From a virus (taxonomy: Duplodnaviria; Heunggongvirae; Uroviricota; Caudoviricetes), in IMG/VR virus record IMGVR_UViG_2698536337_000009: 4,583 bases of DNA, one strand, 5' to 3'. The stretch's first letter is position 1, and each line of letters opens with the position of its first letter. The notes beneath the pieces are model-generated. The model was not told the origin of the DNA. It was given only the letters and a program-made list of their open reading frames with translations, and did no database searches. The position numbers were made by a program, and so were the translations under genes. Positions 1 through 4,583 of this stretch are shown piece after piece.

Positions 1-30
1 ACACTAAATCAGTAAGTTGGCAGCATCACC
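1..30 (-). mobile_element. IS1 terminus (left inverted repeat end); the element body lies left of the window
   Basis: Positions 1-30 are the exact reverse complement of the first 30 nt of IS1 as I recall it (GGTGATGCTGCCAACTTACTGATTTAGTGT). The 23-bp IRL occupies 8-30 and the element boundary is at 30/31. Confidence 0.85.
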
Positions 31-77
31 GAAGTGGTAAAGAAGATAATAAAGAATAATATTTAGGGTTATAGGTC

Positions 78-293
78 TTAGCCCATTTTGAAAACAAAAT
101 ATGCTACTATTGCACTTAATATGAAGGAAATGAATAGAAATATAGATGTTGATGTTTTTAGATATTTTTCAGGAAATAATGGGTGAGCAATAATGTATAC
201 AAGATTAAGTAGTATATAAATTGCTACCGGAATGAAAATCATGCTCCAGTGTGTATCTTTTTTGGGAGGGATTGGCTGCAAATAATCAGACAC
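78..293 (-). CDS. Hypothetical small membrane protein with two predicted transmembrane helices (71 aa from GTG at 293, or 54 aa from ATG at 242)
   Basis: Open frame in AT-rich DNA, where stop codons are frequent. Two hydrophobic stretches (WSMIFIPVAIYILLNLVYIIA and IFLFISFILSAIVAYFVF) are separated by a short polar loop. It lies 82 bp downstream of, and on the same strand as, the 125-aa ORF. The start is uncertain: GTG at 293 lacks a clear SD, and the internal ATG at 242 has a GGAG only 1 nt upstream. Confidence 0.4.
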   Translation of the reverse strand: MSDYLQPIPPKKDTHWSMIFIPVAIYILLNLVYIIAHPLFPEKYLKTSTSIFLFISFILSAIVAYFVFKMG

Positions 294-375
294 CGTTTTT
301 CCATCAGTTTCAAGAAGAATTACTAGATCTCTTACTTCACCACTGACTTGAGTGCATCCTTAGTAGTAATGTTAA

Positions 376-753
376 TCATTTTTTCCCTCCAAATACGATG
401 CCCTCTACGTCTTTGGAAGCTTTTTGTGATGACCACTCCTCTGAATCAGGTGATTTAATTAAAAATATTGTATCTCCATCAAAAATCGTATTTGTTCCGT
501 AAAAATTCACATTTGATAGATCACCACCAAAAACCCTCTGCCCACTCGAGGTAATTGCCTCACCTAATTTAGTAAAATTACCAGCAATAGATGATTTTCT
601 TTTTCCACTTCTATTCAAAGTGGCTTTAATTACACCACCACCATCCTTAGAGTTAAATAATTGAATGTCCACTCCAGCAGTTGGTTGTATATATTTTGAA
701 AGCTCTTTCTTGAACTTGTTAATATATTTATCTTTGTTTTCTTTGTTGGTCAT
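376..753 (-). CDS. Hypothetical 125-aa soluble protein, Lys-rich N-terminus, Gly/Ser-rich body, no Cys, no signal peptide; family not recognised
   Basis: A 378-nt open frame in a region of roughly one-third G+C, unlikely by chance. ATG at 753-751 follows an in-frame stop. Codon usage is AT-rich and consistent with the neighbouring membrane-protein ORF. The SD is weak (GGA about 10 nt upstream). Confidence 0.55.
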   Translation of the reverse strand: MTNKENKDKYINKFKKELSKYIQPTAGVDIQLFNSKDGGGVIKATLNRSGKRKSSIAGNFTKLGEAITSSGQRVFGGDLSNVNFYGTNTIFDGDTIFLIKSPDSEEWSSQKASKDVEGIVFGGKK

Positions 754-906
754 TGGTTAGATCCATAGTTCTGGCTGTGATTAGGTGAAAGTATACAAGG
801 TTTTTAAAGCGAAGATCACTGTTTTGGCTTCAAGATAGTTTTGATTTATCGTAATCAATCCGCCATAATCCTCTCATCGGAGCCTGAACAACTCCGGTGA
901 CTTCTG

Positions 907-930
907 CGCATTTAAGGGGACTTAAATGCG
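907..930. promoter_or_regulatory. Perfect hairpin/palindrome in the divergent intergenic region: CGCATTTAAG-GGGA-CTTAAATGCG
   Basis: Arms 907-916 and 921-930 are exact reverse complements around a 4-nt loop. The loop and right arm contain the AGGGGA Shine-Dalgarno and the ATG (926-928) of the small plus-strand ORF. No U-tract follows on either strand, so it is not a classical intrinsic terminator. Confidence 0.35.
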
Positions 931-1021
931 ACCACAATCTGAACTCATCACCTTGTCACAGATGCAGAAATGCACCTGCGATTTTCTGCATTCTGCGGTT
1001 TCCGTTAGGGAGGCCGTATGA
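926..1021 (+). CDS. Small 31-aa ORF, possibly ylcH-like, translationally coupled to ybcN
   Basis: ATG at 926 with AAGGGGA 5 nt upstream. Manual translation gives MRPQSELITLSQMQKCTCDFLHSAVSVREAV. Its stop TGA (1019-1021) overlaps the ybcN ATG (1018-1020) in an ATGA arrangement. It is below the ORF-track length cutoff. The position matches the ylcH slot upstream of ybcN in DLP12, but I cannot verify the sequence from memory. Confidence 0.3.
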   Translation: MRPQSELITLSQMQKCTCDFLHSAVSVREAV

Positions 1022-1473
1022 CTCTGCCAGTAGACGGCATCAAACTCCATCGCGGTAACTTCGCGGCCATCGGCCAGCAGATTCAGCCATTGCTGGATGC
1101 CGGGCAATGCTTACGCCTGCAGGTTAAGCCGTGGCGCGAGAAGCGCAGCCTGTCGCAGAACGCGCTCAGCCACATGTGGTACACGGAGATCAGCGAATAT
1201 CTCATCGCCCGCGGCAAGACCTTCGCTACGCCTGAGTGGGTCAAAGACGCGATGAAGCACACCTATCTCGGCTACGAAAGCAAAGACCGTGTAGATGTCG
1301 TGTCCGGCGAGGTCACCACCGTCCAATCCCTCCGCCATACGTCAGAGCTGGAAACCGGCGAGATGTACATCTTCCTGTGCAAAGTCGAAGCCTGGGCGAT
1401 GAATATCGGCTGCCACCTGACAATTCCGCAGAGCTGTGAATACCAGCAGCTGCGCGATAAGCAGGAGGCGTAA
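1018..1473 (+). CDS. ybcN: NinB-family protein (DLP12 YbcN-like), 151 aa
   Basis: 151-aa ORF with GGAGG 5 nt upstream of ATG. It contains a RSLSQNALSHMW motif resembling the lambda NinB RSLDQN region. Length and gene order (followed by ninE, ybcO, rusA) match the DLP12 nin region. Confidence 0.8.
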   Translation: MTLPVDGIKLHRGNFAAIGQQIQPLLDAGQCLRLQVKPWREKRSLSQNALSHMWYTEISEYLIARGKTFATPEWVKDAMKHTYLGYESKDRVDVVSGEVTTVQSLRHTSELETGEMYIFLCKVEAWAMNIGCHLTIPQSCEYQQLRDKQEA

Positions 1474-1643
1474 TGGCTACACCGCTTATTCGTGTCATGA
1501 ACGGGCACATCTACAGAGTATCAAATCGTCGTAAGCGTAAGCCTGAGCTGAAGCCATCCGAAATACCAACACTGCTCGGATATACCGCTAGCCTGGTTGA
1601 TAAAAAATGGTTGCGACTGGCAGCAAGGAGGAATCATGGCTGA
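1473..1643 (+). CDS. ninE: NinE-family protein, 56 aa
   Basis: Manual translation from ATG 1473 gives [61 protein letters not shown] lies 5 nt upstream. The start overlaps the ybcN stop (TAATG) and the stop overlaps the ybcO start. It is not in the ORF track because it is short. Confidence 0.75.
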   Translation: MATPLIRVMNGHIYRVSNRRKRKPELKPSEIPTLLGYTASLVDKKWLRLAARRNHG

Positions 1644-1926
1644 TTTGAGAAAAGCAGCGCGTGGTCGGGAATGCCAGGTAAGAATCCCTGGCGTATGTAA
1701 TGGCAATCCTGAAACGTCAGTACTGGCACATATCCGGCTGGCTGGATTGTGCGGTACCGGTATCAAACCGCCAGACCTGATTGCCACCATTGCATGTTCT
1801 GCCTGTCACGACGAAATCGACCGCCGCACATATTTTGTCGATGCTGAGTATGCAAAAGAATGCGCGCTGGAAGGTATGGCGAGAACGCAGGTTATCTGGC
1901 TGAAAGAGGGGGTTATTAAGGCGTGA
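1636..1926 (+). CDS. ybcO: YbcO-family Cys-rich protein (DUF1364-type, putative nuclease), 96 aa
   Basis: The internal ATG at 1636 is preceded by AAGGAGG and gives [32 protein letters not shown]..., matching the DLP12 YbcO N-terminus as I recall it. The Cys/His spacing suggests a zinc site. The ORF-track start at 1597 is an upstream in-frame extension. Confidence 0.8.
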
Positions 1927-2285
1927 ATACCTACAGCATCACATTACCCTGGCCTCCGAGCAATAACCGCTATTACCGCCATAATCGCGGGCGCACACAC
2001 ATCAGCGCAGAAGGGCAGGCATACCGCGATAACGTCACCCGAATCATTAAAAACGCAATGCTGGATATCGGCCTGGCTATGCCAGTGAAAATCCGTATTG
2101 AGTGCCACATGCCGGATCGCCGTCGCCGTGACCTGGATAATCTGCAAAAAGCCGCTTTTGACGCACTCACCAAAGCAGGTTTCTGGCTGGATGATGCTCA
2201 GGTCGTTGATTACCGCGTTGTGAAGATGCCTGTTACCAAAGGTGGGAGGCTGGAACTGACCATCACCGAAATGGGGAATGAATGA
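1923..2285 (+). CDS. rusA: Holliday junction resolvase RusA, 120 aa
   Basis: Protein [26 protein letters not shown]...[11 protein letters not shown] is near-identical to E. coli RusA as I recall it. The GTG start at 1923 overlaps the ybcO stop (GTGA). Its position after ybcO is conserved. Confidence 0.9.
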
Positions 2286-2422
2286 TGTTTGAGTTTTATA
2301 TGGCAGAACTTCTTCGCCACCGCTGGGGGCATCTGCGCTTATATCGTTTCCCCGGTTCTGTTTTGACCGATTACCGAATACTGAAGAATTACGCCAAAAC
2401 CCTGACAGGAGCAGGAGTATGA
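2282..2422 (+). CDS. ylcG: YlcG-like small protein, 46 aa
   Basis: Manual translation from ATG 2282 gives [46 protein letters not shown]. The start overlaps the rusA stop (ATGA). It sits in the conserved position between rusA and quuD. Confidence 0.65.
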
Positions 2423-2507
2423 AGTCAGAGATAACAATCAACTAATACTGTTTTGTTGATTTTTGCTTGTAATTGGCGTTCTGGTCTGATTTTTGTGGAG
2501 TAAGTTG

Positions 2508-2891
2508 ATGCGTGATATTCAGATGGTTCTTGAGCGTTGGGGAGCGTGGGCGGCTAATAATCATGAAGATGTGACCTGGTCGTCCATTGCCGCCGGTTTT
2601 AAGGGATTAATTACTTCAAAAGTAAAATCTCGCCCGCAATGTTGTGACGATGACGCGATGATTATTTGCGGGTGCATGGCCCGTCTGAAAAAGAACAACA
2701 GCGATTTGCACGATTTATTAGTAGATTATTATGTAGTCGGTATGACATTCATGTCACTGGCAGGTAAGCATTGCTGCTCTGATGGTTATATCGGGAAAAG
2801 GTTACAGAAGGCTGAGGGCATAATTGAAGGGATGTTAATGGCATTAGATATCCGGTTAGAGATGGATATCGTTGTTAATAACTCTAATTAA
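2508..2891 (+). CDS. quuD: Late-gene antiterminator Q homologue (QuuD), 127 aa
   Basis: ATG at 2508 with GGAG 7 nt upstream. The protein [26 protein letters not shown]... with a Cys cluster ([13 protein letters not shown]) matches DLP12 QuuD as I recall it. The ORF-track start at 2493 is a TTG extension. Confidence 0.85.
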
Positions 2892-2908
2892 TATGCCAAT
2901 TGTTTACT

Positions 2909-2943
2909 AAAAATTATTAAAAATGGGGCGTTGCAACGCCCCC
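2909..2943 (-). terminator. Rho-independent terminator on the minus strand (likely nmpC/IpeX terminator)
   Basis: An 18-nt perfect palindrome GGGGCGTTGCAACGCCCC (2925-2942) is followed, on the minus strand, by ATTTTTAATAATTTTT. On the plus strand the hairpin is followed by CAAAAATAAA, so it is unidirectional. Confidence 0.5.
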
Positions 2944-3079
2944 AAAAATAAAGGGTAATATATAACAGAAGGTTTATATAGTTAGAAGCAAGGTTGTGCT
3001 CCTAAAGGAAGTGGCTTGAGGGAGCCACTTATATGTTGGGGAGGCAAAGCCTCCCGCAACATATCTTTTAGTAATCAAA
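2909..3079 (-). ncRNA. ipeX: Structured 3' UTR of nmpC; likely counterpart of the DLP12 sRNA IpeX
   Basis: About 170 nt between the nmpC stop (3080-3082) and the minus-strand terminator carry two further stable hairpins (3031-3064 and 3009-3030). From memory, IpeX is a DLP12 sRNA mapped immediately downstream of nmpC, between nmpC and quuD. The 5' end cannot be set from sequence. Confidence 0.35.
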
Positions 3080-4162
3080 TTAGAACTGGTAAACCATACC
3101 TACAGCAACGATATCATCGGTAGCAACGCCAGATGCTTTCGTGAAATCGCTCTTATCAATCAGGTTGATTTTGTAATCAACAAAAGTGGACATATTTTTG
3201 TTGAAGTAATAGGTTGCACCTACATCAATATATTCAACCAGGTCCTGATCACCCCACGCACCCAAGTCTTTTCCTTTAGATTGCAGGTAAGCAACGGACG
3301 GACGCAGACCGAAGTCGAACTGATATTGTGCAACTACTTCGAAGTTTTGTGCTTTGTTGGCAATATGGTTATTACCAAAAACAGTCATGTTCTGGGTTTC
3401 AGAATAGGTGGTAGCCAGATAGATGTTGTTCGCATCATATTTCAGACCAGCTGCCCATACTTCAGCATTTTGACCAGATGCATTCAGGCTGTTGTTACCG
3501 TAGATAACCTGATTATTAGTGCGGTCAGATTTAGCATAGGTTGCACCTACACCGAATCCTTCATACTCATAAGTAGTGGAGAAACCGAAACCATCACCAT
3601 TAGCTTCAGTTACGTCAGTGCGGTCATTTTTACCCTGATACTGAGCAGCAAAGTTCAGACCATCAACCAGACCAAAGAAGTCGTTGTTACGATAAGTTGC
3701 AACACCAGTGGTGCGACCAGTCATGAACACATCTGTTTGAGTCCAAGTGTCACCACCGAATTCTGGCAGGACGTCAGTCCACGCACCGATGTCGTATGCT
3801 ACACCGTAGTTACGGCCGTAATCGATGGAGCCGTAGTCACCGAATTTCAGGCCAGCGAAGGCAAGACGGGTTTTATCTTTGGAGGAACCTTGAGATTCAG
3901 CGCGGTTGCCTTTGAATTCATATTCCCACTGACCGAAACCAGTCAGTTGATCGTTGATTTGGGTTTCACCTTTGAAGCCAAGACGGGCATAAGTAGTATC
4001 ACCATCATCTGCATCATTAGAGGAGAAGTAGTGCTTAGCATTAACTTTCCCGTACAGATCCAGCTTGTTACTGTCTTTATTATAAATTTCAGCTGCCTGA
4101 GCAGACATCGCCATCAGTACTGATGCAGCTACAGCAGAAATTGCCACTGTTAATTTTTTCAT
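3080..4162 (-). CDS. nmpC: Outer membrane porin NmpC (OmpC/OmpF general porin family), intact, 360-aa precursor
   Basis: The protein has a classical signal peptide ([23 protein letters not shown], then AEIYNKD) and porin hallmarks throughout. It ends in the canonical C-terminal ...VGMVYQF and closely matches NmpC as I recall it. The start is chosen at ATG 4162, at the signal peptide; the ORF-track start at 4222 is a 20-codon upstream extension. Confidence 0.9.
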
Positions 4163-4552
4163 CGTGAGCCCTTTTTTTGAACTATTATTAAAAAATGATG
4201 TCATTGCGCGATAAATATTCATCTAATCAATGTGATTATTTCAAGATGTAAGTTTTGGTTTCTCGTTTGATTTGTGAAGTAGATCTCTATTTTTATCTGA
4301 ACTTTTTTCTATCGAATCCTATTCATGGCTCTTGACTGAATAAAAATAAATCTATTAGCCAATTTATATTAACGGCTGTTATTTATAAGTGCTCTATAAT
4401 TTGAAGGTTCAATTTAAACCGGCTAAAAATAACACTGGAAATTATTTGTTGGTTATTTGTTGGGATTTGCTTATGTATTTGTAGTGGTGTTTTCAATACT
4501 CGGTAGCATTCTCGCAAATATCATTTAGTGGTTTACGTACGTAAAAAATTGG
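4163..4552 (-). promoter_or_regulatory. AT-rich nmpC 5' leader/promoter region, truncated at the IS1 junction
   Basis: A 390-bp strongly AT-rich non-coding stretch upstream of nmpC with no convincing ORF on either strand. It contains a TTGAAA -35-like element (minus strand) and an 11-bp tandem repeat at 4442-4463. The exact promoter cannot be assigned by eye. Confidence 0.3.
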
Positions 4553-4583
4553 GGTAATGACTCCAACTTATTGATAGTGTTTT
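4553..4583 (-). mobile_element. IS1 terminus (right inverted repeat end); the element body lies right of the window
   Basis: Positions 4553-4583 (GGTAATGACTCCAACTTATTGATAGTGTTTT) match the IS1 IRR and adjacent sequence read inward from the terminus. The element boundary is at 4552/4553, in the same orientation as the IS1 at the left edge. Confidence 0.85.

Follow-up and report, generated by a model that had tools for sequence, protein, structure and literature searches.

Among the described systems closest to the locus reported here, the transposon Tn9 (IS1-cat-IS1) has a passenger of approximately 1.1 kb, and the nmpC gene of Escherichia coli K-12 is interrupted by IS5. IS1 represents the most expanded insertion sequence of Shigella, accounting for 42-59% of IS sites in genomes whose median IS totals amount to 194-286 sites (Hawkey et al. 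2020, PMC7373316). Intramolecular transposition of IS1 or Tn9 is known to generate deletions or inversions in which the IS is left without direct repeats (PMC9330008, section 5.2.1).

The DNA analyzed in our work (named the “window”, being the whole stretch of 4,583 nucleotides of IMG/VR record IMGVR_UViG_2698536337_000009) encompasses a prophage module bracketed by two IS1 copies, which in all probability arrived independently of one another during IS1 expansion, the left one probably having taken part in an inversion. The coordinates of the corresponding features are collected in Table 1.

Table 1. Features of the window, with coordinates in window positions (L001, the prophage locus of E. 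coli ETEC1731; L005, chromosome CP049179.1).
Feature	Position	Strand	Basis
IRL of left IS1, terminal 30 bp	1..30	-	30/30 identity and pattern scan; element runs leftwards past the window
Lambdoid replication gene P, last 29 bp including TAA stop	31..59	+	Window 31 corresponds to L001 6002; P at L001 5317-6030
Pseudogene remnant, 142-aa predicted membrane protein (phrog_16940)	78..380	-	Translations; PHROG match of intact E. coli homologue
125-aa protein, function unknown (phrog_18061)	376..753	-	ORF; PHROG E=9e-85
ybcN (NinB-like)	1018..1473	+	RefSeq annotation of colinear L001 gene; Pfam NinB
ninE	1473..1643	+	RefSeq annotation of colinear L001 gene; Pfam NinE
ybcO	1636..1926	+	RefSeq annotation of colinear L001 gene; PF07102, E=1.6e-42
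rusA, Holliday-junction resolvase	1923..2285	+	RefSeq annotation of colinear L001 gene; PF05866
ylcG	2282..2422	+	RefSeq annotation of colinear L001 gene; PHROG
quuD, Q-type late antiterminator	2508..2891	+	RefSeq annotation of colinear L001 gene; PF06530, E=3.5e-53
Intact prophage porin, 360 aa, nmpC position of DLP12; RefSeq name OmpC	3080..4162	-	PF00267, E=3e-153
Inner copy of 8-bp target duplication AAAATTGG, made by right IS1	4545..4552		L005 compared with L001
IRR of right IS1, terminal 31 bp	4553..4583	-	31/31 identity; element runs rightwards past the window

The first 30 nucleotides of the window match the IS1 left end (GGTGATGCTGCCAACTTACTGATTTAGTGT) in reverse complement, and its last 31 nucleotides the IS1 right end (AAAACACTATCAATAAGTTGGAGTCATTACC), likewise in reverse complement, in both cases without a mismatch; both window ends also match the ends of an element annotated in RefSeq as “IS1-like element IS1A” in E. 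coli CV839-06. The imperfect inverted repeats of IS1 (GGTGATGCTGCCAACTTACTGAT / GGTAATGACTCCAACTTATTGAT) occur exactly at 8-30 (minus strand) and 4553-4575 (plus strand), while a scan with a degenerate IS1 terminal-repeat pattern returned two matches, both at the window ends, with 0 expected (200 shuffles). The resulting boundaries, 30/31 and 4552/4553, also coincide with the ends of the match to uninterrupted prophage DNA of E. coli (query 30-4552). As one inner junction represents the left end of IS1 and the other the right end, the two copies lie in direct orientation, and in the complete chromosomes containing both junctions (L003, L005 and L012) both are indeed full elements on one strand, the minus strand. 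The original prediction had placed two IS1 ends at exactly these boundaries, had assigned direct orientation to the two copies and had called for verification of their length (about 768 bp), all of which is borne out by these otherwise identical genomes, the right copy measuring 768 bp and the left copy 768 bp plus an IS21 insert in L005. The window was also said to close with the IS1 right end, which is right as to the end but not as to the conventionally written strand, since direct orientation requires the reverse complement of the right end at this position.

The interior of the window is the common DLP12-type nin-Q-porin module of a decayed lambda-like prophage. It is colinear, at 99.4% identity, with the annotated prophage of ETEC1731, which is uninterrupted between P and essD and has no flanking IS1, in agreement with the original prediction of a prophage fragment between the two elements. 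The genes ybcN-ninE-ybcO-rusA-ylcG-Q-porin follow one another between the replication and lysis genes, as in the DLP12 late-regulatory module, and Pfam matches were obtained to NinB, NinE, YbcO, RusA, Phage_antitermQ and Porin_1. An exact-protein look-up recovered the identical porin from many E. coli prophages, including intact ones, and the sole IS1-flanked occurrence in this look-up was a previously found genome carrying the same locus. Upstream of ybcN, the phrog_16940 pseudogene is frameshifted and lacks its 3’ end owing to a 186-bp deletion mapped exactly between window positions 89 and 90; its neighbor, the phrog_18061 gene, is located in a low-GC stretch (GC content of 33-35%). No above-threshold Pfam or PADLOC match was obtained for this low-GC gene pair, and its reading as a defence system is therefore unsupported.

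The window derives from a chromosome of the Shigella sonnei type: it corresponds base for base to chromosome CP049179.1 (L005/L015) over positions 1-89 and 90-4583, the 186-bp deletion being the sole difference. Both junctions are also present in three other chromosomes (L003, L008 and L012) and in the IMG/VR contig L024. Only L008 is named S. sonnei in a paper (strain 4303, PMC6201595), being a reference-ordered Ion Torrent assembly in which IS lengths are unreliable. The IS1 structures outside the window, as described below, were read from such otherwise identical genomes, and those of the window strain are deduced from them. The junction created by the 186-bp deletion matched nothing in GTDB representatives or JGI metagenomes, and the truncated 71-aa ORF resulting from it corresponded to no protein record. 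The 125-aa gene was found on contigs of only 2-5 kb in 6,298 of the 12,488 collection blocks, as is expected if assemblies break at the flanking IS1; the window itself is probably a short-read contig that ended approximately one k-mer into the IS1 repeat on each side.

The right IS1, located in the porin-holin intergenic region, is flanked in the orientation of the locus by ACCAATTTT / IS1 / CCAATTTTT. It is associated with a target duplication of 8 bp (AAAATTGG), so that L005 reads ...AAAATTGG / IS1 / AAAATTGGTTATGC, while the corresponding empty site of ETEC1731 reads ...AAAATTGGTTATGC. To judge from this duplication and from the empty site in E. coli, the right IS1 is an independent simple insertion, and the target-duplication check put forward in the original prediction thereby returned a private duplication for this copy. 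The L005 element contains intact insA (91 aa) and insB’ (167-aa ORF). The site surrounded by the duplication is empty in E. coli, where it runs on directly from the segment, and in the uninterrupted E. coli prophage the passenger continues colinearly into the sequence found beyond the right IS1; the segment is therefore native to the prophage and not an import.

The left IS1 interrupts phage gene P, leaving the last 29 bp of the gene, stop codon included, and its flanks (TACCACTTC / IS1 / CGCTTGCAG) show no target duplication. It is adjoined by chromosomal csc DNA: its outer flank represents one of the two halves of a cscK/cscB target of 9 bp, whose counterpart is found, inverted, beside a third, inverted IS1 located 3.6 kb further on (flanks CTGTCTTTT / IS1 / CTGCAAGCG). 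The outer 9 bp of the left IS1 (CTGCAAGCG on the strand of the intact E. coli site) recur there in inverted orientation. Joining the flanks of the left and third IS1 rebuilds an intact cscK/cscB region that is 100% contiguous in 2,647 E. coli genomes, and positions 13813-15648 of L005, corresponding to cscB to the 3’ end of argW, are inverted with respect to E. coli. In L005, IS21 separates bases 1-231 of the left IS1 from its bases 228-768; in the complete genomes this IS21 measures 2,131 bp, has generated a 4-bp duplication and is 99.9% identical to annotated IS21. Split in this manner, the left IS1 of the complete genomes is predicted to be unable to make its own transposase.

The inverted csc target half beside the inverted third IS1 apparently marks an inversion, and the absent duplication at the left IS1 would be explained by this later rearrangement. 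The left IS1 probably took part in an IS1-mediated inversion, either by intramolecular replicative transposition or by recombination of IS1 with IS1. A plain inversion by recombination between two duplication-bearing IS1 copies was also considered and rejected, as it predicts GAAGTGGTA beside the third IS1, where the actual flank is CTGTCTTTT; this flank requires at least one earlier event. An earlier adjacent deletion or rearrangement probably took the remainder of P together with the early region. IS21 entered the left IS1 later, as displayed by the complete genomes. These steps at the left IS1 are reconstructed, and no diagnostic trace of the loss of most of P was found.

Three other explanations of the window were weighed against the independent arrival of two IS1 elements. 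The window contains just 30-31 bp of each IS1, as would be the case if its terminal bases were isolated IS1 end fragments or chance matches instead of the ends of full elements; considering that the matches are exact, with none expected by chance, and that identical genomes extend both of them to full IS1, this explanation is hardly credible. The same two contig ends would also be produced by a circular molecule, either an excised circle or a small replicon, consisting of the 4.5-kb segment and a single IS1, and the window alone cannot separate such a circle from two direct copies. However, three closed or near-closed chromosomes and the IMG/VR contig display two IS1 copies with different outer flanks, and no plasmid record contains the segment with IS1 flanks, which makes a single-IS1 circle very unlikely. 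The layout of the locus, with direct IS1 repeats around a passenger, is that of Tn9, and the outer ends are intact (IRR of the left copy, IRL of the right copy) with one copy retaining intact insA/insB’, all of which would suit a true compound transposon inserted or mobile as a unit. Against this, the outer flanks of the IS1 pair, CTGCAAGCG and AAAATTGGT in window orientation, do not match, in contrast to the matching outer target duplication of a Tn9-type element; nor does the locus show the foreign passenger and lack of private duplications of such an element, given the duplication of the right IS1 and the native origin of the segment. In addition, IS21 interrupts the left IS1 in the complete genomes, and the unit would be approximately 6.1 kb long, or 8.2 kb with IS21. 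Chandler, Clerget and Galas are said to have found, in 1982, that the transposition frequency of IS1-flanked transposons drops steeply with length. Insertion or movement as a unit is therefore most improbable. The original prediction had held that inner flanks alone cannot decide the history of the locus, which is correct, the decision coming from the outer flanks in complete genomes; its comparison with Tn9 stands for the layout and fails for arrival as a unit, as judged by the mismatched outer flanks and the private right duplication.

The searched collections likewise revealed no other context for the unit. Both IS1 junctions were absent from the 5,426 complete genomes of E. coli searched, as was the IS1-segment-IS1 unit from 72,556 plasmid and 50,697 phage records. 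The best plasmid matches covered approximately 81% of the window (839-4552) at 90-91% identity, in large records without IS1 junctions, while phage records contained only the 839-4552 module, with inducible lambdoid phages at 90-95% identity. The junctions were found in neither GTDB species representatives nor JGI metagenomes, and IMG/VR matches to them corresponded only to the same S. sonnei-type locus. The unit thus occurs in a single context across the E. coli, plasmid, phage, GTDB, JGI and IMG/VR collections, which is weak negative evidence, as complete Shigella genomes fell outside the DNA search. The possible mobilization as a unit, as raised by the original prediction, consequently found no counterpart at another location or replicon. 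A functional compound transposon moving an intact porin together with rusA and Q between replicons of Shigella and E. coli, in which the right IS1 would act as the transposase source for two intact outer ends, has next to no probability. The suggested proneness to IS1-mediated deletion or amplification is reasonable on general grounds, as the IS1 copies are 99.8-100% identical. No deleted or amplified variant of the segment was seen, which is likewise weak negative evidence. The realistic outcome is segment loss or tandem duplication by homologous recombination between the near-identical IS1 copies, not transposition of the unit.

The right duplication, the inversion signature at the left IS1 and the mismatched outer flanks therefore argue for a structure assembled in place by separate events, the bracketed segment being passive in a layout that resembles that of a composite transposon. 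The locus is a routine consequence of IS1 expansion in Shigella. It illustrates how this expansion dismantles Shigella prophages, by simple insertion, duplication-free deletion or inversion, and nesting of one IS within another, and why short-read contigs of IS1-rich Shigella genomes stop in IS1. For genome scans, an IS-bracketed contig from an IS-rich genome represents expected assembly behaviour, and should be called a transposon only after its outer target duplications have been checked; beyond such bookkeeping, the locus is of little significance.

Compared with the defective lambdoid prophage DLP12, the segment shares the gene order and names ybcN-ninE-ybcO-rusA-ylcG-quuD-porin-essD, as annotated by RefSeq at the colinear E. 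coli locus, and differs from the K-12 version in that its porin gene is intact; other DLP12-type variants (L014) contain an emrE-ybcK-ybcM block, whereas in the present segment the low-GC pair is located between P and ybcN. With Tn9, it has in common a direct IS1 pair around a passenger, with outer ends and one transposase intact, but the likeness is one of layout only: here no target duplication surrounds the unit, the right IS1 carries a private one, IS21 splits the left IS1 in the complete genomes, and the 4.5-kb passenger, longer than that of Tn9, is native prophage DNA in its native place at a single locus.

The left IS1 resembles the products of intramolecular replicative IS1 transposition (cf. 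PMC9330008) in its absence of direct repeats and in the two occurrences of the 9-bp target, one next to this copy and the other, in reverse orientation, next to an inverted IS1; the difference is that an equal end state could also result when inverted copies recombine homologously after a simple insertion, so that, at the level of sequence, either route could have been taken. The closest likeness in kind is to the IS expansion and genome decay of Shigella (PMC7373316), with which the locus shares lineage-specific IS1 insertions, pseudogenes, a truncated prophage, IS copies without target duplications, an inversion between IS copies, and junctions missing from the searched complete E. coli genomes; it differs from this process in no respect of kind and represents one more case of it.

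The claim that both ends of the window are formed by IS1 copies in direct orientation was borne out, since bases 1-30 match the reverse complement of the IS1 left end exactly, and the final 31 bases that of the IS1 right end. When compared with the ends of a RefSeq-annotated 'IS1-like element IS1A' from E. coli CV839-06, the two window ends show 97-100% identity, and a degenerate pattern of the IS1 terminal repeat finds two matches in the window, both at its termini, and 0 in 200 shuffles. The left repeat terminates a leftward IS1 at base 30, while the right repeat opens a rightward IS1 at 4553, so the two copies are direct repeats, each on the minus strand.

When the 125-aa protein of the window was used to find identical proteins, ten places came back, of which four belong to IS-rich chromosomes measuring 4.5-4.9 Mb (L003, CP104423.1; L005, CP049179.1; L008, CP029794.1; and L012), and both IS1 junctions are present in all four. 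One of these, L008, belongs to Shigella sonnei 4303 (PMC6201595); because it is an Ion Torrent assembly ordered on a reference, its IS lengths were not relied on. CP049179.1 and the window agree at every base of 1-89 and 90-4583, the sole difference being 186 bp missing from the window without microhomology at the breakpoint. With these 186 bp, which are kept in all related genomes examined (S. sonnei-type and E. coli), a phrog_16940 gene that was already frameshifted has lost its 3' end together with the stop codon; neither GTDB representatives nor JGI metagenomes gave a match to the deletion junction. The same IS1-bracketed locus is carried by an isolate-derived IMG/VR contig. The left and right IS1 junctions occur in none of 5,426 complete E. 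coli genomes and are absent from GTDB species representatives, neither was found in JGI metagenomes, and plasmid and phage records gave partial interior matches only, without IS1 flanks.

The sequence between the IS1 ends (31-4552) is present in more than 1,500 E. coli genomes and is 99.4% identical to an uninterrupted lambdoid prophage of porcine E. coli ETEC1731 (L001), in which RefSeq annotates, in order, P, two opposite-strand hypotheticals, ybcN, ninE, ybcO, rusA, ylcG, quuD, an opposite-strand porin, essD, rrrD and rzpD. The interior, with Pfam matches to NinB-like, NinE, YbcO, RusA, Q antiterminator and Porin_1, is a late-regulatory module of the DLP12 type, of which bases 839-4552 are shared with inducible lambdoid phages at 90-95%. 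The leftmost 800 bases have a GC content of 33-35%, versus 50-55% for the nin genes, and carry two overlapping genes, sited between P and ybcN on the opposite strand, which gave no match in a PADLOC search and look like a moron cassette; the phrog_16940 member is a pseudogene in S. sonnei-type genomes. In five other E. coli prophages with an identical porin protein (L014, L016, L017, L021 and L022) both genes are absent and the P-ybcN interval holds other cargo (EmrE-like transporter, serine recombinase, PBP-family protein, AraC-type regulator); this slot appears to be exchangeable among prophages. Separately, GC-rich hairpins occupy the convergent quuD/porin gap, one of which, read on the minus strand, fits a terminator consensus; the porin terminator is their probable identity, with a structure of the phage tR' region as a further possibility.

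Features of the IS1-bracketed locus, in coordinates of the window or of the chromosomes L005 (CP049179.1) and L002 (E. coli CV839-06)
Feature	Location	Strand	Basis
phrog_18061 gene, 125 aa, function unassigned	within window 78-753	minus	PHROG
phrog_16940 remnant (intact form 142 aa, predicted membrane spans), function unassigned	within window 78-753	minus	PHROG
GC-rich hairpins, quuD/porin gap	window 2925-2942 and 3000-3065		
186 bp missing from the window	between window 89 and 90 (L005 10665-10850)		
Right IS1, 768 bp	L005 5434-6201	minus in window orientation	
IS21 within left IS1, 2,131 bp	L005 11141-13271		
Inverted 3.6-kb segment	L005 13813-18158		
IS1A within the 125-aa gene	L002 6776-7543 (window 608-616)		

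The two IS1 copies differ in their surroundings. The right IS1 in L005, encoding an insA of 91 aa and an insB' ORF of 167 aa, is 100% identical to a nearby third IS1 and 99.5% identical to the annotated IS1A. In window orientation it is preceded by ...GTAAAAAATTGG and followed by AAAATTGGTTATGCTG, and ETEC1731 has ...GTAAAAAATTGGTTATGCTG at the unoccupied site; this IS1 is a simple insertion between the porin and holin genes that duplicated 8 bp of its target. An independent IS1A insertion lies inside the 125-aa gene of E. coli CV839-06 with a 9-bp duplication (TTCTATTCA), and this segment has thus been an IS1 target at least twice, in separate lineages.

The left IS1 cuts gene P 29 bp ahead of its stop (window 31 corresponds to L001 6002, P ending at 6030), and the sequences on its two sides, which in locus orientation read TACCACTTC and CGCTTGCAG, show no duplication. 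The DNA outside it, from cscB to the last 15 bp of tRNA-Arg (argW), is not phage DNA and is inverted relative to E. coli. About 3.6 kb further out lies the third IS1, in the opposite orientation, whose far flank CTGCAAGCG is the reverse complement of the outer flank of the left IS1, so that the segment enclosed by these two mutually inverted IS1 copies, with cscB and an argW-proximal att remnant, is itself inverted and has one copy of the 9-bp target at each end in opposite orientations. Joining the flanks of the left and third IS1 in silico, with the 9-mer kept once, yields a 300-bp product that matches 2,647 E. coli genomes at 100% and without a break, at the cscK/cscB junction, which indicates that one 9-bp target is now split and inverted between the two copies. 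Intramolecular replicative transposition with inversion predicts such a split target, and intramolecular transposition of IS1/Tn9 leaves the IS without direct repeats (PMC9330008, section 5.2.1); a simple insertion followed by homologous recombination between inverted IS1 copies would give the same result. On its other side the third IS1 is flanked by CTGTCTTTT, which is not complementary to GAAGTGGTA; this points to a preceding event, probably an adjacent deletion, by which the remainder of P, and with it the early region, was lost. In L003, L005 and L012 an IS21 (99.9% identical to annotated IS21, with a 4-bp target duplication) is nested in the left IS1 after base 231, within insA, and this copy has lost the ability to make a transposase of its own.

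Shigella populations carry a median of ~194-286 IS sites per genome, 42-59% of which are IS1 (PMC7373316), and the IS1 load computed from these figures is roughly 80-170 copies per ~4.8 Mb. By our own calculation, random placement would leave 7-15% of IS1 copies with the next copy at ≤4.5 kb, and each genome would therefore contain several pairs this close, half in direct orientation; the L005 locality is even denser, with three IS1, an IS21, and an IS3-family and an IS4-family element within 20 kb. Each end of the window reaches about one k-mer into IS1 (30 bases on the left, 31 on the right), and of 12,488 collection blocks 6,298 have the 125-aa gene on contigs of just 2-5 kb, the expected product of assemblies breaking at these two IS1 copies. 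The bracketing is thus probably the reason for the ends of the window, that is, a selection effect. The locus is an ordinary, already sequenced case of IS1-driven prophage decay in S. sonnei.

Considering that the left and right copies are 99.8-100% identical, the segment may fairly be expected to undergo RecA-dependent loss or tandem duplication, and no deleted or duplicated variant was seen in the data examined, a searchable set outside which complete Shigella genomes fall. Of the original prediction, the direct IS1 pair with prophage DNA between its members stands, while the analogy with Tn9 (IS1-cat-IS1) is wrong or at least unsupported. An IS1-segment-IS1 unit was found at no second site in the 5,426 complete E. 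coli genomes, plasmid and phage records, GTDB representatives or JGI metagenomes, and movement as a Tn9-like unit was rejected on this single site together with the flanks, the private duplication and the native passenger. The locus shares with Tn9 its layout, in which the IS1 copies are direct repeats, the outer ends are intact and so is one transposase; unlike a Tn9-type unit, its outer flanks (CTGCAAGCG and AAAATTGGT) differ, one IS1 of the pair has a duplication of its own, and the passenger is colinear with the DNA past the right IS1 in uninterrupted prophages, so that the structure was built in place by separate events.
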